Counted from the stretch's first letter, positions 2,276-37,488 are shown. The stretch: 41,201 nucleotides of DNA from a virus (IMGVR_UViG_3300045988_107359:1-41201), one strand, 5' to 3'. Notes: a model not told the origin generated them from the letters alone. Translations and numbers: made by a program.

Positions 2276-3525
2276 TTATCCAGCGCCGAGATACCCGGCA
2301 GTCACTTCCCCGCCGGTCATGTATCCTGCGTAGTCTTCCGGCGCATCATCCTCTTCGTCGTCCCAGAAGACAGGCTCCTTCTCTTGAATGGCTTCTGCCG
2401 GTAACACACGACTTACGCAGTAGTAGCGCACACCATCGACCGTGTGGGTCACCTCGTGTGGGTCTTTGGCGCAGTCGTTCGGGTTCTTTTCATCCGCCTG
2501 AATGTCCTGAATATCCCCGACAGCGCCCTTGCAGGTGTCGAAGAACAGCAGCCCAGGCAACTTGTCAGGGACAGTGCCATCATTCCGACGGAACATGGCC
2601 TGCACATGTGGGTCACGCAGAGGATAGGGAGCCATCGCTTCCTTCATCATCATGTGGCCCTGGACGCGGTTGTTATCCGCTTTGATAAGACCCACCTGGT
2701 TCAGCATGAACACCTCCGCCATGGTCTTGCCGGTGTCCTTCTGCCTGCTCCACATATCCGGCGGCGCATAGGTGGCCGCGATATGCTCACCCGGAAGGGT
2801 CAGCTCATGTATTTTGTCCGCCGCTTCCTTGACGATCAGGCCCTTATGGGTGAACTCCCGGTAGCACCAGGAGCGTCCATCCTCATCCACCGCCCACCAG
2901 TAACACGCGAACATGTCAAGGCCGTAGTCAAAACTCCGGTATCTCTGCCAATGGTCTGGAATCTTGAAGGGCTTCACCACATGAGTAGCAACGGAAAACT
3001 CCGGGAAGTAGTTGCCGCCGATTGCGTTCCAATCGCCATAGCGGTAAGCCTTTCGCTTGTCTTCCGGCATATTTGCCAACATCCGCACATAGCCAGGGGA
3101 AGAAGCCATCAGGTGATAGTTGTCTTCAACTGTGGCGGGAATGAAACTATAATCATCCGGGTTCTCATTCTCTTCCGGGTTGTCCGAGTTGAGCTTGAAG
3201 TCCCTGTCGATGAAGAGCCGCTTCACCCATCTGTGACCGACACCGCCGGGGTTACAAGTCAGGTACATCCGCTTTGGGAACTCATTGACGCCACGAAGAC
3301 AGCCGCCCAGGAAGTTGAACGCTCTCTCAGAAAACTGCGTTGCCTCGTCAATGAAGATCCAGTCGTATTCCAGACCGTTGTATTCGTCCTCAGAAGCATC
3401 TCCGGCCCAGTGGCCGAACTTGATGGTCGAGCCGTTGTGGAAGGTCATAAGGTGCGTTGTGGCGTTGTAAGAAGCCGCCTCACGCGGTACCATCTTTACG
3501 ATGGGGCGGATATGGTTTTCTTCTA
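2276..3525 (-). CDS. terL: Terminase large subunit, exon 2
   Basis: The reading frame is open upstream of the listed Met as far as 3525 (..LEENHIRPIVKMVPRE..). Walker B-like DWIFIDEATQF and a C-terminal nuclease-type region are present. There is no Walker A here (it is in exon 1) and no RBS before the internal Met. Confidence 0.85.
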
Positions 3526-4328
3526 CAATTTTGTTATCGCAAAGGCTTTTTATCCTCTGCTTCTAGCCCTTTCGGGTAGTTCGGCATATCTCTCTCCCCC
3601 TCTGGGGACCCGCTCTCGTGGGTGTGTCACCTGTTCTAGGCTCTCACCTATGCTCTGCGGCTGGACGGCATCCCTGCCGGCCTTCACCTCTGATTAGCCT
3701 GTCTGTAAATCGTTTGCGTAGATTGGCGTCGCAGCTAATCCACTGGCAATTCTCCGGGCAGTAATCACCATCCGGGTCAATGCGGTCAATAGAAAGAATC
3801 TCCTTGTGTGGAGTGTCCTTCGGTTGCTCGTAGTACCCATGTTCATAAGCCCATGCTCGAAACGCAGCGTAATCGTCTTTCCACTCGTCACAGACCTTGA
3901 TTCCCTTCATGGAGTAGTTCTTTCTGTGCTGTGCCTTGTTGTAGTAACAGCGTTGCTTCATGGCGTACCAGATCGTATAAAGTCGTTCCTTCTTGGAGTA
4001 GCCGTGCTTCGTGTTTCGTTCCCTAGTACACTCAGCTTTCAAGCACCCGCAAGAACGTGTCTTCCCTTTCACAAGGTCAGTACCGACTACCAGCGTCGTC
4101 ATGCCGCAATCGCAGGAACACAGCCACTTACCAACAGCCTTTCTCTTCCCGTTTGGAAGGGTCTTGTGCTGCAACTGATACTCAATGACGGTCAAGCGCC
4201 CGAAGCGCTGGCCTGTCAGCTCGTGTCTACGCATATATGAACCCCCTCTGGCGTTATTTACAGATTTAGCTTCCCAGCTTTTTAGCAGGTTTCTAACGTG
4301 TATTCCTACACGCCGGAGCAAGAAGTTT
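3526..4328 (-). mobile_element. Probable group I self-splicing intron carrying a homing-endonuclease-like ORF, inserted in terL
   Basis: 803 nt. The 5' splice site follows a U (GAGU|AAAC) and the last intron base is G (AAAUUG|UAGAAG). Joining 4329 to 3525 gives CCU GAG UUA GAA GAA AAC, i.e. ..RRTYPELEENHI... Exons total 229+1250 = 1479 nt, in frame. Candidate P1: exon CCUGAGU pairs with intron GCUCCGG (4319-4313), with a U.G pair at the splice site. Candidate P2 hairpin CGUGUA-GGAA-UACACG at 4312-4297. Confidence 0.72.
3644..4234 (-). CDS. Intron-encoded HNH/AP2-type homing-endonuclease-like protein
   Basis: ATG at 4234 is preceded by AGAGGGGG. Cys-rich N-terminus (CSCDCG..SCGC). LYTIWYAMKQRCYN and SIDRIDPDGDYCPENCQW motifs are typical of phage HNH-like endonuclease families. 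The ORF lies wholly inside the terL interruption. Confidence 0.7.
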   Translation of the reverse strand: MRRHELTGQRFGRLTVIEYQLQHKTLPNGKRKAVGKWLCSCDCGMTTLVVGTDLVKGKTRSCGCLKAECTRERNTKHGYSKKERLYTIWYAMKQRCYYNKAQHRKNYSMKGIKVCDEWKDDYAAFRAWAYEHGYYEQPKDTPHKEILSIDRIDPDGDYCPENCQWISCDANLRKRFTDRLIRGEGRQGCRPAAEHR

Positions 4329-4557
4329 ACTCAGGATAAGTGCGACGCATAATCAGAATCCTGATTCCCGGATTCGTAAAAGCGCCTCCGACAGCTTTGA
4401 TTCTGACGCTGTGTGTTTTGCCACCGCCCTTAGCACCGCCGTAAGCTGTATAGGTTGTTCTCGATAGGTAAAACAACCTCTGCTTTGCGTTAGCCTCTCC
4501 AGGGTCCCAGACGATCTCTTTCTTCCCCTGCCCCCGGTACATTCTTCTCTTTGCCAC
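4329..4557 (-). CDS. terL: Terminase large subunit, exon 1 (Walker A)
   Basis: 76 codons plus 1 nt. P-loop YGGAKGGGKTH. Ends ..ILIMRRTYPE, and the following TAA is intronic. GTG start at 4557, with an alternative ATG at 4542. Confidence 0.8.
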
Positions 4558-4577: not shown

Positions 4578-4626
4578 AACAAAAAAGGGCCAGCCACCTA
4601 GAAATTTCTTTCTAGGTAACTGACCC
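4578..4626 (-). terminator. Strong rho-independent terminator 20 nt upstream of the terL start
   Basis: On minus: GGGUCAGUUACCUAGAAA-GAAA-UUUCUAGGUGGCUGGCCC. This is an 18-bp stem (3 G.U pairs) with a GNRA loop, followed by UUUUUUGUU. Confidence 0.8.
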
Positions 4627-4665
4627 CATTCGGCCCATCCTACCCACCACTTAGAGTAGGGTTAT

Positions 4666-4831: not shown

Positions 4832-4922
4832 TGGCGCGAGGAGGAGGATTTGAACCCCCACAGGCCTTGGCCCCTAGCGCATTTCAAGTGCGCCCTCTTC
4901 AACCAGCCTTGAGTATCCCCGC
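4832..4922 (-). tRNA. tRNA-Ser (anticodon UGA), type II with long variable arm
   Basis: 91 nt with encoded CCA. Acceptor GCGGGGA/UCCUCGC and discriminator G. 3-bp D stem with a long D loop. Anticodon stem GCGCA/UGCGC with loop CUUGAAA. T arm GGGGG-UUCAAAU-CCUCC. Confidence 0.85.
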
Positions 4923-5271
4923 ATATAAATGCCCTACCAGAATTGTACTGGCGCTCTTGTCCCAAAGAGAGCTGCTCTTTACGGGCCGCAGCTTATCACA
5001 TAGGAGGGCGGTAGAAACCAATGAAAAGACCGCACCGAAAGGAGCCAAACTCTAGGTCATGCCCTAAAGCCCAGCATAAGCCCGTCTTTCCGGGCTGTCA
5101 GCCCGCTTCTGGTCGTGGCATGGCCTTGTACCTGCTATCCAAGAGTGTGCCCAAACCGAATAGCAAACCACGCTCGCATATCGCAGACAACTGAAAAACA
5201 GAGATAAGAATGGAAGCGAATTTCACTTCCTTTCCGTTCTGTATTTCTGCCAACTCCGTCGAGTTGGCACT

Positions 5272-5341
5272 TGGTACCCAGCAGAGGAATTGAACCCCTA
5301 AACACAACATGCCATATCGTGTCCGTAACCTTACACTAGGT
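5272..5341 (-). ncRNA. tRNA-like element or degenerate tRNA (possible anticodon GGC)
   Basis: 70 nt ending ACCA. T arm AGGGG-UUCAAUU-CCUCU. Acceptor ACCUAGU/GCUGGGU with 2 G.U pairs. Possible anticodon arm ACGAU-AUGGCAU-GUUGU. Only 14 nt are available for the D region, so no canonical D arm. Confidence 0.35.
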
Positions 5342-5580
5342 ATAGTTGTTTATAATCTGTATATGTGTCGAGTGCCCTGTTCTATATTTCAGAATGGCTT
5401 TTCTGAAATGGTACCCCCCGTTTTTCTGGTGTATGGTTTTCGTGAGAGGTATGTTTGGAGGGTTGCTCTCAAGAGTGTGTGTAGTCTATACAGGGGCCGG
5501 CCGCCAGAGGAGCGCCCTTTTTCCGCCACACCCTCACTGTTTGGTAGGGGGGTGGTAGGGGTACCCCCCTATATAGTAGG

Positions 5581-5690
5581 CACGCACACGCCCGCGCCCC
5601 GCGCGGGGCCACGCGCCCCCCCGGCCCCCACCCCCCCAGGCCCAGGCCCGTGCCCGTGCTGGTGGTGGTGTGCTCGCTGTGCTGGTGTGT
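5581..5690. repeat. Extreme GC / poly-C low-complexity island
   Basis: 14-bp perfect palindrome GCCCCGCGCGGGGC at 5596-5609. Six C-runs of 3-7 nt at 5616-5655 (G-runs on the minus, transcribed strand). Short tandem units CAGGCC x2, CGTGCC x2, TGG x3. Confidence 0.9.
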
Positions 5691-5768
5691 GATAGCCTGT
5701 CAAATCCCTGTCAGACAGGGCAGAAATCCTTATATATCAATGGGTTGTCCATGCCATAATAGCAGAGA

Positions 5769-5804
5769 AGCGCAGATACATATATATAATAGTGTATCTA
5801 CGCT
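5769..5804 (-). promoter_or_regulatory. Hairpin immediately after the terS stop (possible attenuator or terminator)
   Basis: Inverted repeat AGCGCAGATACA (5769-5780) / TGTATCTACGCT (5793-5804) with an AT-only loop. Only a modest T-rich tail on the minus strand. Confidence 0.35.
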
Positions 5805-5806
5805 TA

Positions 5807-6205
5807 CTACTTAAACGCATCCGCGCCACCCACACCCTGAATCTTTAGAGTAATGGTTGCGCCCTGATCTCCTGTATTAATTGGGCTATCGGTGTAGCCG
5901 CCGTTTTTGGTTTGTTTGAGTTGGAATATTGCAGCCGTGCCGGCTTTGGGATCGTGCTCAAGCATGGTAAGCAAGCGATGCTCCCGGAATTGCTGCAACC
6001 TTTTTAGTGGTGCATCGTATCCGTGATATGTGTCCCCCTTCTCCCCTCCCCGCCCATACCTTTCCAGCGTCGTGGGGCTTACCTGGAGGAATTTACACAA
6101 CTCAAAATCAGTGGGGATAAGCTCTTCTTTTTGGCACTTTTCAATAAATTGTGTAATGAAAAGGTCCAATTTTTGTGGAGAATCAATCTTTTTCTTGTTT
6201 GCCAT
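5807..6205 (-). CDS. terS: Terminase small subunit
   Basis: N-terminal HTH-like region (LCKFLQVSPTTLERYGR). AAIFQLKQTKNGGYTD motif is typical of small terminases. First gene of the late operon. Start taken at the second ATG, 9 nt after AAGGAG. Confidence 0.75.
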   Translation of the reverse strand: MANKKKIDSPQKLDLFITQFIEKCQKEELIPTDFELCKFLQVSPTTLERYGRGGEKGDTYHGYDAPLKRLQQFREHRLLTMLEHDPKAGTAAIFQLKQTKNGGYTDSPINTGDQGATITLKIQGVGGADAFK

Positions 6206-6279
6206 TGATTTCATCTCCTTGCTTAAAATGTTTTATATATTTGAAAGTATACAAATCTTAATCCTGCTTTGGTAAGTCA

Positions 6280-6414: not shown

Positions 6415-6639
6415 TTATATGCTCTCTGTGCCCTCTGGTGTGGGCTGTGCGGCGTCCTGGTGCTGTGCCATGAAATCATCTACTGCTGCCCGGAAAACAG
6501 CGTTGGGCGTGGTTCCTGCGGCTTTGCAGGCCGCCTTGAATTCGTCCGCTGCATCCCGCCTCATTTTACAGCCTAATACCGTGGTGGCTTTGGCTATGTA
6601 TTTGTTGTTTGCCCGTCGCTGGGCATCCGTAAGCGTCAT
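6415..6639 (-). CDS. Ribbon-helix-helix (Arc/CopG-like) DNA-binding protein
   Basis: 74 aa with RBS AGGGGGTGA. The pattern AQRRANNKYIAK..TVLGCKMRRDAADEFKAACKAAGTTPNAVFRAAVDDF is typical of RHH regulators. Divergent from the accessory operon. Confidence 0.65.
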   Translation of the reverse strand: MTLTDAQRRANNKYIAKATTVLGCKMRRDAADEFKAACKAAGTTPNAVFRAAVDDFMAQHQDAAQPTPEGTESI

Positions 6640-6685
6640 TGGTTCACCCCCTAGATTCAGTATTTATATTGTAGCACACCCCGTC

Positions 6686-6730
6686 AAGGTTTAACCATGT
6701 ACAAATTGCCTAAATACATGGTTTAACCTT
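6686..6730. promoter_or_regulatory. Operator pair (inverted repeat of the GGTTTAACCATG motif)
   Basis: AAGGTTTAACCATGTA (6686-6701) and TACATGGTTTAACCTT (6715-6730) form an inverted repeat (central base differs) separated by 13 nt. Confidence 0.6.
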
Positions 6731-6745
6731 TGTCTATTCCGTCTA

Positions 6746-6774
6746 TTGCAATCCATGGTTAAACCATGTATTAT
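6746..6774 (+). promoter_or_regulatory. Promoter of the accessory operon, with the operator filling the spacer
   Basis: TTGCAA (6746-6751), 17 nt, TATTAT (6769-6774). The 15-bp palindrome CATGGTTAAACCATG (6754-6768) lies exactly between -35 and -10. Confidence 0.65.
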
Positions 6775-6818
6775 ATAGCCATCAAAGGGAAACACCCAAA
6801 CAACAGGAGGCACACACC

Positions 6819-6989
6819 ATGAAAAAGATCATCGCTTGCATCTGCATCGCGCTCGCGGCCTTCGCCGCCGGCCACCTCACCACGATCTACACGCTGGAGA
6901 TCGAGACAGACGGCGACGGCGACAGCGCCATTGTTACCAGCTTCGGGCAGGAGCACTTCTACGGCATCAACGGCTACGAGATCGGCTAA
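6819..6989 (+). CDS. Small secreted or membrane protein (56 aa)
   Basis: Not in the ORF track because it is under 60 aa. RBS CAGGAGG lies 8 nt before the ATG. MKKIIACICIALAAFAAGHL is a signal/TM-like N-terminus. Confidence 0.5.
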   Translation: MKKIIACICIALAAFAAGHLTTIYTLEIETDGDGDSAIVTSFGQEHFYGINGYEIG

Positions 6990-7062
6990 CTCCATTCCGG
7001 GCCTGGGCGGTGTCCCGCAAAACGCCGCACCCCATAAATCTAAAAACAGATAGGAGATAACC

Positions 7063-7578
7063 ATGAAATACTTTATCAATGTGAACACCCTCGCAGAGCT
7101 GAAAGCTCAATACCGCCGTTTGGCGATGAAGCACCACCCCGACAGAGGCGGAGACCTGGAGATCATGAAAGCTATCAATGCAGAACATGATGAGCTTTTC
7201 TCCATCCTCTCCAAAGCTCAGAACGACAAAGCAGCAGCAGACCCCACCGGACGCACCGCAGCCACCACTGAAACCCCGGAAGAGTTCCGGCAGATCATCG
7301 ATCTGCTTCTGAAGCTGGACGGCCTGGAAGTTGAGCTTTGCGGCTCCTGGCTTTGGATTGGTGGCAACACCAAGGAACACAAAGACGCACTGAAAGCGGC
7401 TGGTTGCCGTTGGTGCTCCAAAAAGAAGTTGTGGAGTTGGCACCACCCCGAAGAGGGACAGCGTTACAGCAAGCATGGAAACAAAGACATGGGCTATATC
7501 CGCACTAAGTACGGCTCTCAGACGTTCGAGGCCGGAAAAGAGACCAGCAAGTACGCTAAGATCGGGGCGACCGCGTAA
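7063..7578 (+). CDS. J-domain (DnaJ-like co-chaperone) protein
   Basis: The N-terminus (LKAQYRRLAMKHHPDRGGD..MKAINAEHDELF) contains the HPD tripeptide. The C-terminal LCGSWLWIGGNTKEHKDALKAAGCRWCSKKKLWSW module recurs in Firmicutes mobile elements (recalled, not searched). Confidence 0.8.
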   Translation: MKYFINVNTLAELKAQYRRLAMKHHPDRGGDLEIMKAINAEHDELFSILSKAQNDKAAADPTGRTAATTETPEEFRQIIDLLLKLDGLEVELCGSWLWIGGNTKEHKDALKAAGCRWCSKKKLWSWHHPEEGQRYSKHGNKDMGYIRTKYGSQTFEAGKETSKYAKIGATA

Positions 7579-7599
7579 GCGGTCCCCCAGGAGGTAACA

Positions 7600-8055
7600 A
7601 TGGGATACAAAGATTTGCTTCTCCGATTCGGAGAAATCCAAGAGCAGGCCGAGCGCAAGATTTACATTTATGTAAGAGCCCCCGAAACCCTAAAAACAGC
7701 GAAAGAAATCGCCTGGAGAGACTGCGATGCAGCAGCCAAAATTAAAGAGCTGGAAGCCATAACAGAAGCTTTGAAAGACTACCGCACAGCCCTAGCGAAA
7801 CGATACGGAGAACTCGAAACGATGCCATACAAAGACGCGCTAAAGATCGAGCGTGTCCCACATTGGAAAAAACATATAGAGTATATCGTGACCATAACAA
7901 GGGTTTTCGAGGACGGAACCCAGAGAGAAGAGCTTCGAGAGATATACAAAGGAAAAGAACGTAAAGCAGCCCTCGGCAGATACGAAGGGCTTCGCAAGCA
8001 ATTTCCCGGCATCGAATCGACCAAAATGATTGATAAGCGAAGTTGGGAGAAATAA
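7600..8055 (+). CDS. Hypothetical protein
   Basis: 151-aa ORF with RBS CAGGAGG, same strand and operon. No motif recognised. Confidence 0.6.
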   Translation: MGYKDLLLRFGEIQEQAERKIYIYVRAPETLKTAKEIAWRDCDAAAKIKELEAITEALKDYRTALAKRYGELETMPYKDALKIERVPHWKKHIEYIVTITRVFEDGTQREELREIYKGKERKAALGRYEGLRKQFPGIESTKMIDKRSWEK

Positions 8056-8143
8056 GCCGAAACGCCCCTTCCGGGCGTCTGCCGGAAATAGCCTACCGGC
8101 ACTGATGAGGCAGGCTAAACACAAGACCAGGAGGATGAATACC

Positions 8144-8335
8144 ATGAAAACCTATTATTTCCCCGACAATGAACACTACGACGCTTTCTTCGGCGCTTTT
8201 ACCCCTATCTGCGTAGACCTAGCCGAGTTGGAGCGCCTGGCCCGTGGCTGGGAGATTGATTTCGATGAGCTGTTAGACCAAGTACACGAAGCAAGAGGCG
8301 ATGAGATCGCCGAGTACGGCGTTTGTGATAGCTGA
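8144..8335 (+). CDS. Small acidic protein (63 aa)
   Basis: ATG lies 9 nt after AGGAGG (8129-8134). 16 Asp/Glu against 4 Lys/Arg. Lies directly upstream of the CasB-like gene. Confidence 0.55.
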   Translation: MKTYYFPDNEHYDAFFGAFTPICVDLAELERLARGWEIDFDELLDQVHEARGDEIAEYGVCDS

Positions 8336-8414
8336 AACATCCTTCAGGATGTCCGCCGGGATTGCAAAACCAAGCAATCCCTGGTAAGATTAAGAAAAAC
8401 AGGAGGTTTTAACT

Positions 8415-8930
8415 ATGAAGAAAACCAATGAGTTCTTCTCCAACATCGACCGTCTGCCGCTGGGCAAGCGAAACGCCTTGAGGGACGAGGCAAAGAATCA
8501 GTTCGGCCAGGTCGAGCACCCTAGCACCTACGCTCACTTCTTTAGTTGCCTGCCCGAAACTATCCCGGAAGAGTTAGAAAGCCGCTGCTATTTCGCAGCC
8601 TGCCTTCACTGCTTGTGGCCGGTTGGCACTACCAACCGCCTGCCGGTAGAAGAAATCCTATGGGATATAGCAAGGAAAGATGCACAGAAGCAGAAGAAAC
8701 TGGAGCACGATTTGAAAATCCTGCTTGATTACCAGTGGGGAACCGGCGACATCCTGCCTGGTAAAATTTATCACCTGGCCAAGATTTTCAAAAATGAGGG
8801 CTATGCTATCGACTGCGCCGCTCTGCTGGACGATTTGATAAACTGGGACGACCTGAAACAAACCGTGCAGCTTAAATGGTCTCGCGCTGTTTACATGAAA
8901 CCAGGCACAGACGGAATTTTATATTGCTGA
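8415..8930 (+). CDS. casB: CasB/Cse2-like protein (type I-E Cascade small-subunit homologue), orphan
   Basis: 171 aa with RBS AGGAGG. N-terminal LPLGKRNALRDE and C-terminal IDCAALLDDLINW..TVQLKWSRAVYM match my recollection of Cse2 landmarks (LxxGxxAxLRR; DhxxLhxDLxxW...WARxYY), and the size fits. Not verified by a profile search. Confidence 0.55.
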   Translation: MKKTNEFFSNIDRLPLGKRNALRDEAKNQFGQVEHPSTYAHFFSCLPETIPEELESRCYFAACLHCLWPVGTTNRLPVEEILWDIARKDAQKQKKLEHDLKILLDYQWGTGDILPGKIYHLAKIFKNEGYAIDCAALLDDLINWDDLKQTVQLKWSRAVYMKPGTDGILYC

Positions 8931-8936
8931 CGCCCC

Positions 8937-8965
8937 TAGACAAACAACGAAAGTTGTCGTATAAT
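8937..8965 (+). promoter_or_regulatory. Near-consensus promoter of a small-RNA cassette
   Basis: TAGACA (8937-8942), 17 nt, TATAAT (8960-8965), with TG at -16/-15. Confidence 0.5.
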
Positions 8966-8971
8966 GCGCTT

Positions 8972-9043
8972 GTAATCCTTCGCAGGATTCAGCGCGACAA
9001 TCCCCCTTCCCGGTTATCAGGACCGAGAGGGGGGATGCTTTTT
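8972..9043 (+). ncRNA. Candidate ~70-nt small RNA ending in an intrinsic terminator
   Basis: 5' hairpin AAUCCU-UCGC-AGGAUU (8974-8989). Then a 14-bp hairpin AUCCCCCUUCCCGGU / ACCGAGAGGGGGGAU (9000-9036) followed by GCUUUUU. No ORF. Confidence 0.4.
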
Positions 9044-9239
9044 GACAGAAATTTGACAGGCCGAAATAGGTTATTCTGGGTAAAAATAAGGCATTTTAAG
9101 GCACAGAAACAGCTCAAAAACAGCCCATAAATAGGCACAGAAAAACCCGCAAACCGTTGGTATTCAATGGCTTGCGGGTTTTCGGTTGTTCGGATTCAGA
9201 ATTTCACCTAATCAAGACACGACGACATATTAAAACCCC
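9041..9239. other. Probable attP region (arm-type direct repeats)
   Basis: Non-coding stretch downstream of int. TTTGACAG occurs twice (9041-9048, 9052-9059) and AGGCACAGAAA twice (9099-9109, 9133-9143). The core site is not identified. Confidence 0.3.
9141..9183. terminator. Bidirectional terminator downstream of int
   Basis: AACCCGCAAACC / GGCTTGCGGGTT stem (one mismatch), flanked by A5 upstream and T4 downstream. Confidence 0.6.
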
Positions 9240-10367
9240 TTATTTATCAACGCTTTCCGCGTTTTCTACATCATCTTGACAGAGAAATTGATTCAGCCTC
9301 TCCGTTGCCGCTTTCTTCTGCCGTTTCCTGATGTGCGTGTACACGTTCAGCGTGGTTTGGATATCCGCATGGCCAAGAAGATCTTGCATATCCTTCATCC
9401 CAACGCCAGCTTCATATAAAATCGTGGCGTAATAGTGCCGCAGCTGGTGAGATGTAACTGTTACCCTCCACCTATCCAATCCACGCAGTTTCTTTTTCCC
9501 CTCCTGCTGTTCTTTCTCTTCTGCCAACCCCGCAGAAATACACCACCGTTTCCACGCGCGGTGATACTCATTTGCTGTCATGTAGCCGTTTTTCCCCTTA
9601 AATATCATCCCGCTTTTGTTGCGTGGAAGCCGCCGTTTCAGCTGTTCCAACAGGGATATCTCCCGTTCTCCTGCATCCGTTTTCGGCGTTTTCACGCGCG
9701 GGATACCATTGATAAATTCAACGGAATGTTTCACACTGATCAGATTTTTCTCCCAGTCGAAATCTTCCCAGCGCAGGGCCAGCAGTTCAGCGCGGCGCAT
9801 CCCAGTAAACGCCTGGAGCAGCGGAAACAGCCCGAATCCTTCACCACCAAATGCCGCCCGCACCTTATCCATTTGTTCGTCTTCCGGCGGCTCCCTGGTC
9901 CCTTTTGGCAGGTTTCCGGGCAGCCTTGCAGATCGCGCTGGGTTGTATTTAATCATACGCTTCAAAATAGCGTAATCAAAAATCCCGTTCATCACGTTCT
10001 TGCGCTTGGACACAGCACTAAACCCCAACCCCTTCGCCGCTGCGCTCTTTAAAAAGTCCATGATCTCATCAGCGTAAATGTCGCCAATGTTTCGCCCGGA
10101 AAACCAGTCCTTCGCTTCGCGCAAAGAGGGCATGTATCCGTGCTCTGTGTTCCAGCCGACCTTATCCACCTCTATCTTAAAATTGAGCCACTCATCCGCC
10201 ACCGTCTCAAACAGCACGGCCTTCTCCTTGGCTTCCTCTTCGGCCCGGTTCCACTCAGCTATCTTCCGCCGTACTTCCTTCTGTGTTTTGCCGTAGAAGT
10301 ATTTGGGTTTCGCCATCCCCGGCAGCTTCACTTGCTCCTGCCACCGTCCGTCCTTGCGTTTAATCAT
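9240..10367 (-). CDS. int: Tyrosine integrase
   Basis: 375 aa. The C-terminal catalytic region (HQLRHYYATILYEAGVGMKDMQDLLGHADIQTTLNVYTH) carries the R..H-x-x-R..Y signature of tyrosine recombinases. Confidence 0.9.
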   Translation of the reverse strand: MIKRKDGRWQEQVKLPGMAKPKYFYGKTQKEVRRKIAEWNRAEEEAKEKAVLFETVADEWLNFKIEVDKVGWNTEHGYMPSLREAKDWFSGRNIGDIYADEIMDFLKSAAAKGLGFSAVSKRKNVMNGIFDYAILKRMIKYNPARSARLPGNLPKGTREPPEDEQMDKVRAAFGGEGFGLFPLLQAFTGMRRAELLALRWEDFDWEKNLISVKHSVEFINGIPRVKTPKTDAGEREISLLEQLKRRLPRNKSGMIFKGKNGYMTANEYHRAWKRWCISAGLAEEKEQQEGKKKLRGLDRWRVTVTSHQLRHYYATILYEAGVGMKDMQDLLGHADIQTTLNVYTHIRKRQKKAATERLNQFLCQDDVENAESVDK

Positions 10368-35385: not shown

Positions 35386-37488
35386 TCACCTCGCATAGCC
35401 CGTGAATCGTACCCGCATGTCAGCGGACAGGATGGTCACGGTGGTGTTAATGGATTCCGTTCGGAAAATCAGCTTGTAAAACACGAACTTCTTCGCCTTG
35501 ATCTTCAGGCGCTTCATGTGCGGCTTTCGGTTCGGGTTGAAGCTCCACTTCCGAAAATCCGCCCCGGAAAACGAGATCAGGGACGAGACCACGACCTTGT
35601 TTGTATAGGCCGATTTTCGGTCTGTCTGAACGGTTACATAGACTTCACCGTGGGTCTCCGGCTTGATGCCTACCCACAGCATGGCGCTGTACTTTCGCAT
35701 GAAGTCCTGAGAAAAACTCTCTGCGCCGCTTTCCCAATAGCTTTCGATTTTCTCCCCGTTGTCTGTCCGGTTGGTGTAAGCGATGAGATTCAAGCGTCCC
35801 TTGCTGTCTCCACTATATAGCTTCCCACGGAAGTTTACGAAGCACGTCACGTCAAAGGCTGTGTAGCAGTACCAGGCATCTGCGGCGTAGTTGTGTACCA
35901 GCGCCCTGTTGTCTGTATTGATGATGTAATACTCTTGGTTGTCGTTGTCGTCCCAACAGCGGCAGTGTTCCAGGTCAAAGCCTGCCAACGTCCCCATGAT
36001 GCGGTCAGAGATACGCCGTGCCTGCCGCTCGTCAATGGTCATGTTGGCAGAGTAGGAAGAGCTGTTCTTCCACTCATACAAGTCGTGCCCGAAGAGCGTT
36101 CTCGGAGAGTTCAGCACCAGTTGTGCTTGCCCCGGTGCCACATTTCCAATGGCTCGGTTCACGGGCGTTGCGTAGAACGTCGCCGCCGTGGTGTTGTCCA
36201 CCATCGTGGTCACGCCGTACTGCACGGAGTAGGTAGACGTAGACTTGTAGACGATCAGCCGGGAGTAGTGCCGAATGAGTGCCGTGATGGGAGTGTTGGC
36301 GTCCCCCACTTTCAGGACGTTCATGTCCGGGAAGTAGTCTGCCCTCGGTTTTCCATCGTTGTCCAGGCCGGAGTAATATGCCTCGTTCGTGCCGTCTCCA
36401 TAGAGAAAGACACGGTTGTCGTTGGCTCCGTTGAAGGTCTCTGCATACTTCATGGCAAGCGCCTTGTCCCGGAAGTTCTTCTTCACTTCCCACGCGATTT
36501 CAATGGTGTTTATCCCCTTCTCCGGGGCTGTGCTGAAGGTCACAGTCCCCTTTTCCAGGTCAACGGTGTACTTGCTCTTCTCGATCTCAGGCTCGTTCTC
36601 TGCCGCCTTGTTCTTTACCCAGTCTACGGACTTCAAGTCCTTCTCCGGCAGGGTGAAGGTAGTGGCAGTGCCGTCCGGGGAGAACCAGCAGCGGCGCTTC
36701 CCGTTGAGCTTGTTCACCTGCTCATAAGTGGTGCCGCCGCCGCTTGGAACGACGGTAATGGTCACGATAGGCCGGTACCCGTCCACGTCCTGAAGTGTTT
36801 TTCCGTCCCACTCTTTGTACTGGCCCTTTGCCATGATATAGAGCTTTTCAGAGTAGCCGAAGAAAAACACCGGTTCCGTGGTGTCCAGATCACCAATGGC
36901 TTCCCGCTTCCATGCCCCGTCATGGAGCTTCCAGAGCTTTCCGTCGGCAGCGCCGACCAGGTACTCTTTTCCCTTCACGTTGCCAGCCCATAGACCAGCG
37001 ACTTTCTGGTTCACGGAAGAGGATACCGCACGGCAACGCTTCATCTTCCAGGTGTACTCATCCCGTTCTGCGTCATAGGTGCAGGAAACAAGCTGATAGG
37101 TGAAGTTCTCGTCATAGCGCCAATAGTATCCTGCGTACTGTTCCGCGTTCTCGTAGCTTACAGAGACCTCGTCCCCGGAGACTTCCAGAAAACCGTCTGT
37201 CGTCACAGTGCAGGTTGGGTGCATCCGAAGCTTGCCGGAGACATGTTCATCAACGCGAACTTTTTGCGCGTTGTCCTCCACCTGCAAGGTATAGGCTTGC
37301 AGTAAGCCCTTCACCATCTGCTGTCCCGGTCTTCTCTGCAAGTTCCGGTCACGGGTGACTTTGAAGTTCCGAATGACCGATGCTTCCCCCATTTTCAGTT
37401 TGGTGTCGCCGTCTGGGTTTTCGTTCAAGCCAAGAAATTCCTGGATACGAAAGACCTTCTCGTCGGCTCCGGTCGTAATTCTCGCCAT
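35386..37488 (-). CDS. Large tail / nozzle-type structural protein
   Basis: 700 aa, lying between the head-completion gene and the fibre gene. Function inferred from position only. Confidence 0.5.
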   Translation of the reverse strand: MARITTGADEKVFRIQEFLGLNENPDGDTKLKMGEASVIRNFKVTRDRNLQRRPGQQMVKGLLQAYTLQVEDNAQKVRVDEHVSGKLRMHPTCTVTTDGFLEVSGDEVSVSYENAEQYAGYYWRYDENFTYQLVSCTYDAERDEYTWKMKRCRAVSSSVNQKVAGLWAGNVKGKEYLVGAADGKLWKLHDGAWKREAIGDLDTTEPVFFFGYSEKLYIMAKGQYKEWDGKTLQDVDGYRPIVTITVVPSGGGTTYEQVNKLNGKRRCWFSPDGTATTFTLPEKDLKSVDWVKNKAAENEPEIEKSKYTVDLEKGTVTFSTAPEKGINTIEIAWEVKKNFRDKALAMKYAETFNGANDNRVFLYGDGTNEAYYSGLDNDGKPRADYFPDMNVLKVGDANTPITALIRHYSRLIVYKSTSTYSVQYGVTTMVDNTTAATFYATPVNRAIGNVAPGQAQLVLNSPRTLFGHDLYEWKNSSSYSANMTIDERQARRISDRIMGTLAGFDLEHCRCWDDNDNQEYYIINTDNRALVHNYAADAWYCYTAFDVTCFVNFRGKLYSGDSKGRLNLIAYTNRTDNGEKIESYWESGAESFSQDFMRKYSAMLWVGIKPETHGEVYVTVQTDRKSAYTNKVVVSSLISFSGADFRKWSFNPNRKPHMKRLKIKAKKFVFYKLIFRTESINTTVTILSADMRVRFTGYAR

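Follow-up and report, generated by a model that had tools for sequence, protein, structure and literature searches.

An orphan Cse2 homologue and interchangeable ribozymes in a hypervariable accessory operon, probably for counter-defence, of a temperate phage of gut Clostridia

What is the function of the run of small genes that lies between the late genes and the integrase in IMGVR_UViG_3300045988_107359:1-41201, the genome of a temperate phage? The whole stretch of 41,201 nucleotides is referred to here as the window, and the question concerns its positions 6415–9043. An initial annotation had read this segment as an anti-defence island, in which a divergent ribbon-helix-helix (RHH) gene controls one promoter and five same-strand genes in the manner of anti-CRISPR (Acr) loci with an autorepressing Acr-associated (Aca) regulator. 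We favour the view that a phage of gut Clostridia here carries a hypervariable accessory operon whose most likely purpose is counter-defence. That part of the earlier reading gains from mosaic slots, an ArdA gene in a sibling phage, co-variation of regulator and operator, an altered orphan homologue of Cse2, and acr-aca-like operons around a 63-amino-acid (63-aa) protein, while a match to a known Acr is missing. Beyond the initial annotation, the analysis adds that the segment is a mosaic in which ArdA is one of the alternatives, that an orphan clade of Cse2 has latch residues of reversed charge, and that ribozymes punctuate the operon.

The phage genome is ~41 kb long, complete and circularly assembled, with ends that overlap by ~117 bp. 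Its late genes are on the minus strand, the first being a small-terminase-like gene (5807–6214). On the other side of the segment lies a tyrosine integrase on the minus strand (9240–10367; Pfam Phage_integrase, 7.4e-23; phrog_1, 7.9e-62), after which come CI-like and Cro-like genes. The attachment site attP is presumably in 9044–9239, and direct and inverted repeats occur within 9082–9182, beside the integrase. The segment holds five open reading frames (ORFs) on the plus strand, with a Shine-Dalgarno (SD) sequence ahead of every one. Pairwise ratios of nonsynonymous to synonymous substitution rates (dN/dS) across six related phages are 0.03–0.32 for all five, which argues that they are real coding genes. 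The five same-strand genes, the divergent RHH gene, the promoter, the operators, and the terminator that had been described are all found in the sequence; the 63-aa gene is present as well, with its start at 8144 and not, as given before, at 8145.

Is this segment core genome, or is it exchanged among relatives? The detailed comparison covered six phages (the window, the ENA contig L002, and the IMG/VR genomes L004–L007), and two more relatives (L065, L068) were added through a pattern search. The flanks are more than 90% identical among relatives, and inside the segment whole modules differ; the comparison that the initial annotation had suggested, run on the six phages, shows a mosaic and not a core region. 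The regulator with its operators forms one slot, in which the alternatives are a 74-aa or an 82-aa protein, and the slot 5′ of the 56-aa gene is either empty or holds an extra gene of 66, 75, or 109 aa. Slot C carries a J-domain gene plus a 151-aa gene, a 69-aa gene, a 69-aa gene plus a 154-aa gene, or a gene for a 167-aa ArdA protein. Slot D is empty or filled by a 110/111-aa Cys-rich gene or a 115-aa gene, and the slot 3′ of the Cse2-like gene is empty or filled by a 102-aa gene. All six phages have the 56-aa, 63-aa, and Cse2-like genes and share no other gene of the cassette, and the cargo proteins are mostly small and acidic. In L006, slot C encodes the ArdA anti-restriction protein (Pfam, 1.6e-31; phrog_2059, 3.7e-23), which stands where the window has its J-domain and 151-aa genes. 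A separate observation concerns a hairpin-plus-SD linker, GCCC-NNNN-GGGC-GAAAGGA, found before differing cassette genes (L004, 4355–4396; L005, 4845–4884 and 5160–5183; L006, 4500–4543), which may be a joint for insertions 5′ of the 56-aa gene.

How is the cassette controlled? The putative Aca-like repressor is a 74-aa protein encoded on the minus strand (6415–6639), recognised as an ORF and placed by weak family-profile matches in the RHH type. Its family comprises more than 244 clusters, and a profile of this family matches RHH proteins in the PDB (ParG, the RHH domain of PutA, AvtR, and ORF56) at E-values of 0.002–0.1, those for ParG, PutA, and AvtR being 0.002–0.015. Against Pfam the single protein gives weak matches (RHH_10 at 0.09, ParG at 0.13), every one of them to an RHH family, and 16 of its 37 relatives match RHH_10 or ParG; from these profiles an RHH fold is likely but not strongly indicated. 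The cassette promoter (TTGCAA-17-TATTAT; 6746–6774, plus strand) has its whole spacer occupied by operator O3, the palindrome CATGGTTAAACCATG (6754–6768). A pair of operators, O1 (6686–6701) and O2 (6715–6730), makes up an inverted repeat (6686–6730) with 16-nt arms that are 94% complementary, and this pair overlaps what is probably the promoter of the 74-aa gene. The palindrome that had been seen over the promoter and again before the RHH gene stands in three copies, O1 to O3, and the operator motif CATGGTTWAACC has five matches in the 41-kb genome, all in 6685–6768, where 0.3 would be expected in total.

In three siblings, the 74-aa regulator is replaced by an 82-aa paralogue (37% identical), and the same three siblings carry another palindrome, TATGAGTTAACTCATA, at the equivalent three positions, one of which is a promoter spacer (TTGACT-17-TAAGAT). 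The breakpoints of this exchange are at 6460, in the 3′-terminal part of the regulator gene, and at 6758, at the promoter. Because protein and site are replaced together with the geometry kept, there is good comparative evidence that the 74-aa protein binds its palindromes, and we infer that it represses the cassette promoter. In our proposed mechanism, the divergent RHH protein would bind all three palindromes, two over its own promoter and one in the spacer of the cassette promoter, and the cassette would be expressed in an early burst and then shut off, in the manner of Aca proteins. Aca14, an RHH Aca, has been shown experimentally to repress anti-defence operons via inverted repeats over the −10 element (PMC13551039). 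The Aca-type layout of the initial annotation is retained in part: inverted-repeat operators over the promoter and a probable RHH-type regulator agree with it, whereas the regulator is divergent and not in the usual downstream position of an aca gene. The RHH protein could also be read as an antitoxin that belongs to a toxin-antitoxin module, or to a stability module of the plasmid type, with the cassette unrelated to it, and these RHH proteins are weakly similar to ParG and TacA1. Yet the regulator is divergent and has no co-transcribed toxin, the cassette proteins show no toxin domain in Pfam, PHROG, NCBIfam, or PADLOC, and the operator lies within the cassette promoter and co-varies with the regulator, all of which makes an antitoxin the least probable of the explanations weighed here.

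The last gene of the cassette (8415–8930, plus strand) had been labelled CasB-like, and this label holds both by family profiles and by predicted fold: the 171-aa product is a genuine, orphan homologue of Cse2/CasB (Cas11e). Taken singly, the protein scores below thresholds (Pfam, 21.2 against 24.6 bits; TIGR02548, 20.5 against 28.5 bits, E-value 4e-4). A profile of this protein and its three closest relatives retrieved 161 proteins out of 1.84 billion. TIGR02548 (casB_cse2) is matched by 71 of 80 relatives, at best with 3.3e-22, a profile of the 80-sequence alignment finds solved Cse2 structures in the PDB at 5e-17, and six Cas11e models of PADLOC match the protein, the best at 1e-6. The AlphaFold2 model has nine helices and a pLDDT of 93.7, and the top 14 PDB matches in Foldseek are all Cse2/CasB (TM up to 0.72/0.78), with a sharp drop in score after them. 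There is no other cas gene and no CRISPR array in the 41-kb genome, and the gene is likewise an orphan in relatives. Rather than standing between cse1 and cas7 of a type I-E operon with an array, it is a viral cas homologue without a cognate system, in an anti-defence neighbourhood, as is the case for AcrIB3 and AcrIB4. Among GenBank phages, neither the protein nor the DNA of the segment has a match.

Where did this orphan come from? Its closest relative is another orphan (P0003), 68% identical, which belongs to a different integrative element and adjoins an AcrVA2-like gene. An orphan lineage that is 38–40% identical (P0004) is found on phage-like contigs of 35–75 kb, directly 3′ of a helix-turn-helix (HTH) gene. 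The nearest cellular homologues are 35% identical and are named Cse2/CasB of Evtepia sp., in canonical type I-E loci (L010) with the order cas3-cse1-cse2-cas7-cas5-cas6e, CRISPR array, cas1-cas2. The orphans of the window, P0003, and P0004 form one clade in 256 of 300 neighbor-joining bootstraps, and the dN/dS of the Cse2-like gene across the six phages is 0.03–0.16; an orphan clade under purifying selection points to an old capture that has since been maintained. In IMG/VR, no member was found of the orphan lineages P0004 and P0028, the latter a further orphan outside the clade and without cas neighbours. As a side observation, an RT-2 RNA (RF03077, 123–157 bits) occurs in L008 (11191–11424), L012 (13514–13747), and L047 (7030–7251), and in L008 and L012, which carry the second orphan cse2 lineage, it adjoins a reverse-transcriptase gene.

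A lone cas gene whose single-protein model score is under threshold could also be a decaying, functionless fragment, captured from a host CRISPR-Cas system or left over from a phage-borne one. This is very improbable in light of the dN/dS of the gene, its constant presence in the cassette, the high confidence of the predicted fold, and the ancestry just described, with 35% identity to the nearest cellular Cse2 against 68% and 38–40% to orphans in two other kinds of mobile elements, and bootstrap support of 85% for the orphan clade.

The orphan clade is set apart from its relatives at specific positions. Two columns of the family are Lys or Arg in 87% and 94% of 77 relatives, while the window has Asp at both (D24 and D99), P0003 has Glu and Asp, and P0004 has Lys and Asp, so that all three orphans of the clade share Asp at the column that is Lys or Arg in 72 of the 77 relatives. 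In P0028, the two residues are His and Glu. In an hhalign mapping of low probability, though anchored on the motifs G.R.ALKR and R...LLD..W, the columns of D24 and D99 correspond to R27 and R101 of E. coli CasB. In E. coli Cse2, these two arginines provide a tether to Cas7 (D22/W199) and touch flipped-out bases of the target strand, according to a review of Cascade structures (PMC5965380). The C-terminal signature (W144, Q152, and W155) is kept in the window. Overall charge was considered as a signature and rejected, as the protein is ordinary in this respect for its family, whose members range in net charge from −13 to +9, and the specific positions alone are informative.

From the kept Cas11e fold together with Asp at the positions of R27 and R101, we propose that the Cse2-like protein may be a dominant-negative small subunit with its two latch arginines changed to Asp. 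It would bind the Cse1 or Cse2 of the host, or take the place of Cas11 in type I-E Cascade, and thereby prevent stable locking of the R-loop and the recruitment of Cas3. The retained fold and C-terminal signature would also suit a protein that co-operates with the Cascade of the host, either retargeting or stabilising it against competing elements or silencing a CRISPR-controlled toxin, and partial CRISPR systems encoded by phages do exist (PMC10161043). However, the phage has no crRNA or CRISPR array, the residues that hold the target strand are charge-reversed, and the neighbourhood is anti-defence-like; co-operation is, in our view, improbable.

If the Cse2-like protein is an inhibitor, is it the only one in the cassette? 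The 63-aa strongly acidic protein (8144–8335, plus strand; net charge −12, pI 4.05), conserved in all six phages, would be a second, independent candidate of the Acr type. Its family consists of 22 homologue clusters that are 52–95% identical, and in other phages the homologues come after lysis genes and adjoin the integrase. In several phages, a 65-aa HTH gene lies 7 nt 3′ of the 63-aa homologue, and this pair has its own promoter with two copies of the palindrome GGCTAAAATTAGCC and terminators flanking it on both sides. In others, the homologue adjoins a 53-aa RHH protein (Pfam RHH_5, 5.6e-5) or a 48-aa RHH-like protein. Acrs have been discovered through this kind of pattern, in which a small acidic protein is accompanied by one small regulator or another. 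The AlphaFold2 model of the protein (pLDDT 80) has no fold match in the PDB (best E-value 1.0), and PADLOC gives a marginal match to JetA. Separately, the 5′ untranslated region (UTR) of the cassette (6776–6818; ATCAAAGGGAAACACCC...AGGAGG) resembles the UTR ATCAAAAGGGAAAACCCAAGGAGG of the 63-aa/HTH operon in unrelated phages (L016, 5890–6000), and this similarity suggests a common leader module.

Is the operon expressed as one unit, as the description of a single promoter implied? The promoter at 6746–6774 is there, and the description is incomplete because a hammerhead ribozyme would divide the operon RNA. A type II hammerhead self-cleaving ribozyme (8055–8119, plus strand) is identified by Rfam (RF02276; 49.8 bits with a gathering threshold of 37; E-value 1.9e-7; model positions 1–66 of 66). 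Its first nucleotide is also the last one of the stop codon that ends the 151-aa gene, and it stands between the third and fourth genes of the cassette. In the Rfam alignment its core (CUGAUGA, GAAA, GUC) is intact, and loop I (UAGCCU) is complementary to a 3′ AGGCUA, a possible pseudoknot between loop I and the 3′ tail; these positions do not vary across the phages. Cleavage is predicted between C8079 and U8080, and the predicted 3′ product has a hairpin at its 5′ end and then the ribosome-binding site of the 63-aa gene.

The same hammerhead is found in six relatives. In five phages, 69 nt here are invariant bar one loop base while both flanks diverge, and its 5′ edge is the recombination breakpoint of slot C. 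In the sibling L002, a type P5 twister (RF02684, 69.3 bits) replaces the hammerhead at the identical junction, and L005 has both, the twister coming after an extra 75-aa gene. The twisters of L002 and L005 differ by a compensatory pair. Every ribozyme found in the sibling genomes falls inside the cassette, and there is no further ribozyme in the other intergenic regions of the window (Rfam, E-values up to 1). In the proposed mechanism, the polycistronic RNA would cut itself at C8079/U8080 and part the variable 5′ half (56-aa, J-domain, and 151-aa genes) from the conserved 3′ half (63-aa and Cse2-like genes). The 3′ half would start with a 5′-OH in a terminal hairpin, the expression of each module would be independent of its neighbours, and the ribozyme would be a conserved joint for the recombination of modules.

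Outside the siblings, more distant phages have a twister directly 3′ of the 63-aa homologue, and an identical 33-nt type P5 twister segment is present in 17 other phage contigs of IMG/VR (among L047–L064). In most of these, an ORF ends within ~30 nt upstream, and short ORFs surround the twister in all. In the largest related group, the twister is 3′ of lysin-like and holin-like genes. L047 and L064 have a type II hammerhead ~0.9 kb beyond the twister on the same strand, and L060 has two twisters ~280 nt apart. For the proteins that flank these twisters, 25 of 27 have no Pfam match, the recognised ones being a D12 methyltransferase and a zinc ribbon. One twister-bearing contig also has two tandem skipping-rope RNAs (RF02924; L054, 6238–6464, minus strand). 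What hammerhead and twister ribozymes do in bacteria is, by the account of one review, largely elusive; it adds that different classes occupy like sites and that processing of polycistronic RNA has been suggested (PMC6765202). A literature search, which was not exhaustive, found no paper tying hammerhead or twister ribozymes to anti-defence operons. Our tentative proposal, which we hold less firmly than the counter-defence reading of the operon as such, is that hammerheads and twisters may be interchangeable punctuation and recombination joints of counter-defence operons, and that the orphan Cse2 may be the first Cas11e-derived anti-CRISPR.

The three genes of the 5′ half are less informative. 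The 56-aa gene (6819–6989, plus strand), found in all six phages with a dN/dS of 0.05–0.29, encodes a protein with an N-terminal hydrophobic, probably membrane-spanning, segment IIACICIALAAFAAG and an acidic tail; it has no family match in Pfam, PHROG, NCBIfam, or PADLOC. The 171-aa putative J-domain protein (7063–7578, plus strand), with an additional C-terminal domain, belongs to the variable slot C and occurs only in the window, L004, and L007, being replaced in siblings by the 69-aa gene or ArdA. Its Pfam DnaJ match (E-value 1.8e-5) is under the cut-off at 25.1 against 27.8 bits, with helices II–III alone aligned. An HPD motif is present at residues 25–27, NCBIfam DnaJ models match the N-terminal region only, at 1e-6, and phrog_15863 matches at 2.6e-47. 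The 151-aa basic protein (7600–8055, plus strand) is a constant companion of the J-domain gene and has no family match in Pfam, PHROG, or NCBIfam.

With such cargo, the segment could be a general accessory operon, of the "moron" or early host-takeover kind, in which the 56-aa protein serves superinfection exclusion, the J-domain protein hijacks chaperones, and Cse2 has a role other than CRISPR inhibition. This possibility deserves to be taken seriously, even if we judge it doubtful. The segment sits at the prophage end beside the integrase, the small membrane protein is always present, in a podovirus a homologue of the J-domain protein comes first in a small-gene operon that points away from terS, and most of the proteins that flank ribozymes in other phages are without known function. 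On the other hand, nearly all the recognisable cargo of the ribozyme-punctuated arrays is counter-defence (ArdA, the Cse2 homologue, the D12 methyltransferase), the exceptions being the J-domain protein and the zinc ribbon. In addition, the 63-aa protein has acr-aca-like partners, and the orphan cse2 clade, an old one kept by purifying selection, shows changes specifically at functional arginines.

While these observations lead us to prefer counter-defence, several others weigh against it or against the mechanism proposed. In Pfam, PHROG, and NCBIfam, the window's proteins show no match to any characterised Acr, no dedicated Acr or anti-defence database having been searched, and it is position alone that suggests an anti-defence role for the J-domain, 151-aa, and 56-aa proteins. 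Scans of genome collections with the Cse2-like alignment and with the integrase found no prophage copy, so that a type I-E system in the host is a presumption, and the one Evtepia-like array examined, of which L010 and L011 have a copy each, holds 23 spacers without a match to the window or to relatives of it. For the Cse2-like protein, the mapping to E. coli CasB has the low probability already given, and the correlation between orphan status and altered residues is imperfect, as one relative from a canonical locus (P0111) has Asn at the R101 column. Reversal of the latch arginines could also bar the protein from Cascade altogether, which makes the poisoning route uncertain. The RHH gene is upstream of the late operon and co-oriented with it, and its product may have a role in the timing of late genes. 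As for the ribozyme, 5′-OH ends in Firmicutes can promote decay by RNase J1, and its effect on expression could run either way.

Two other readings were considered and rejected. For a defence island, as opposed to an anti-defence one, there is no credible PADLOC match to a non-Cas defence system; no cassette protein except the Cse2-like one convincingly matches a defence-system model in PADLOC, and the Cse2-like protein also gets a marginal match to an HTH model. An RNA anti-CRISPR in the form of a solitary repeat unit was sought by comparing the cassette hairpins with the nearest cellular type I-E repeat (ATTAACCCCACGTATGTGGGGATGAACCG) and by a repeat-motif search, with nothing convincing found; the hairpin at 9000–9036 is a terminator. 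Elsewhere in the window, at ~36507–36526 (minus strand), CCCCGGAGAAGGGGATAAAC looks like the 3′ portion of a type I-E repeat, a loose-pattern match that is probably due to chance.

The remaining elements of the segment are intergenic. The strong terminator that had been placed at the end of the unit is borne out as a 15-pair hairpin (9000–9036) with a U-run. It is preceded by a further 3′ hairpin (8966–8995), and the two together (8966–9043, plus strand) fold with −40 to −44 kcal/mol (z about −4 to −5). Directly 3′ of the stop codon of the Cse2-like gene is an uncertain promoter-like site (TAGACA-17-TATAAT; 8937–8965, plus strand; 11 of 12 matches), which may yield a ~75-nt RNA of two hairpins, or the region may be plain 3′ UTR and terminator. 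Between the 63-aa and Cse2-like genes, two hairpins without a U-run (8337–8385, plus strand) fold with −25 kcal/mol (z −3.5) and have no Rfam match; in relatives, the insertions of slot D (~8398–8407) are just 3′ of them. Hairpins in the gap between the 56-aa and J-domain genes (6990–7062) are not significant (z −1.6).

The neighbouring terminase genes also vary. The large terminase gene of the window is split into a 76-aa N-terminal ORF (4327–4557) and a 405-aa ORF (2276–3493), both on the minus strand, by an insertion of ~807 bp; L002 lacks the insertion and has an uninterrupted gene of 492 aa. This insertion carries a 225-aa ORF (3644–4321, minus strand) without a Pfam match, and Rfam finds no group I intron at E-values up to 1. 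Between the small and large terminase genes are a gut-2 RNA (RF02990, 41.5 bits; 4616–4663, minus strand) and a tRNA-Ser(UGA) (4832–4922, minus strand), the gut-2 RNA being within an indel of ~255 bp that is present in some siblings and absent in others. The ~880 nt between the tRNA and the small terminase gene (4923–5806) are poor in ORFs, partly GC-rich, and without an Rfam match, and their identity to L002 (~84%) is below that of the flanking genes.

What would follow if counter-defence is the function of this operon? Should the ribozymes be punctuation of such operons, bacterial hammerheads and twisters would acquire a concrete biological role. They are seen here in a readable setting, at junctions of swappable genes in a repressor-controlled operon with recognisable counter-defence cargo, which opens their long-debated function to direct tests. 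The Cse2-like protein would be a concrete candidate for a Cas11e-derived inhibitor of type I-E systems with a testable mechanism, in which Asp stands in place of Arg at two positions of known function. Few Acrs work by subunit poisoning, and where Cas11 is concerned, type I-B alone has been the subject of such a proposal to date. Since regulator and operator are swapped jointly, the siblings may provide matched, orthogonal repressor-operator pairs. Candidates for anti-defence screens are found among the small acidic proteins, namely the members of the 63-aa family together with the 110-, 115-, 66-, and 69-aa proteins, and phages of gut Clostridia have almost no characterised Acrs.

How does the operon compare with known systems? 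The closest are acr-aca loci, especially those controlled by Aca14 (PMC13551039), which likewise have small, mostly acidic, fast-exchanged genes behind a strong promoter and an inverted repeat over the promoter core for a small regulator, whose binding and auto-repression are predicted here from comparison. In both, the regulator has an RHH fold, putative in the window, instead of the usual HTH, and in both a co-opted cas gene is under such control, csx20 there and cse2 here. The comparison covers architecture, and the difference is that the regulator here is upstream and divergent rather than the last gene of the operon. There are, moreover, three operator copies, a transcript predicted to be split by a ribozyme, and no known Acr. 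A second parallel is the immI region of P22, where the RHH repressors Arc and Mnt control an antirepressor. There, too, an accessory operon of a temperate phage is governed by RHH repressors whose palindromic operators lie in a region of divergent promoters, while the cargo differs and there is no sequence relationship.

For the Cse2-like protein, the nearest precedents are AcrIB3 and AcrIB4 and the viral orphan cas genes of Katz et al. (bioRxiv 10.1101/2023.06.24.545427), which are likewise stand-alone viral homologues of Cascade subunits in an anti-defence neighbourhood. That study published a table listing 358 orphan viral cas genes, the available part of which has no cse2, cas11, or casB entry and none of the four contigs at issue here. 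AcrIB4, an inhibitor of type I-B, is a homologue of the Cas8b C-terminus/Cas11b, and a published proposal has it taking the place of Cas11b (bioRxiv 10.1101/2025.06.06.658234). By analogy, the role of the small subunit (Cas11) would be mimicked in both cases, with subunit poisoning as our proposal for the present one. The difference is that the protein here is a Cse2 of type I-E, as opposed to a Cas8b C-terminus/Cas11b of type I-B, and that charge reversal at two latch arginines is its signature.

The ribozymes have the canonical core and pseudoknot of known type II hammerheads and type P5 twisters (RF02276, RF02684; PMC6765202), the pseudoknot of the hammerhead being a predicted one, and like them they are intergenic, near phage functions, with different classes at equivalent places. 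In contrast to those, their context here is legible, at module junctions of a regulator-controlled operon with cargo of the ArdA or Cse2 type, and two classes are exchanged at one junction between siblings, with breakpoints at the edge of the ribozyme. In synthetic insulators of the RiboJ type, a hammerhead 5′ of a cistron trims variable upstream RNA and leaves a defined hairpin ahead of the ribosome-binding site. The placement in the phage operon is the same, with a natural element in place of a synthetic one and with insulation as its putative effect.

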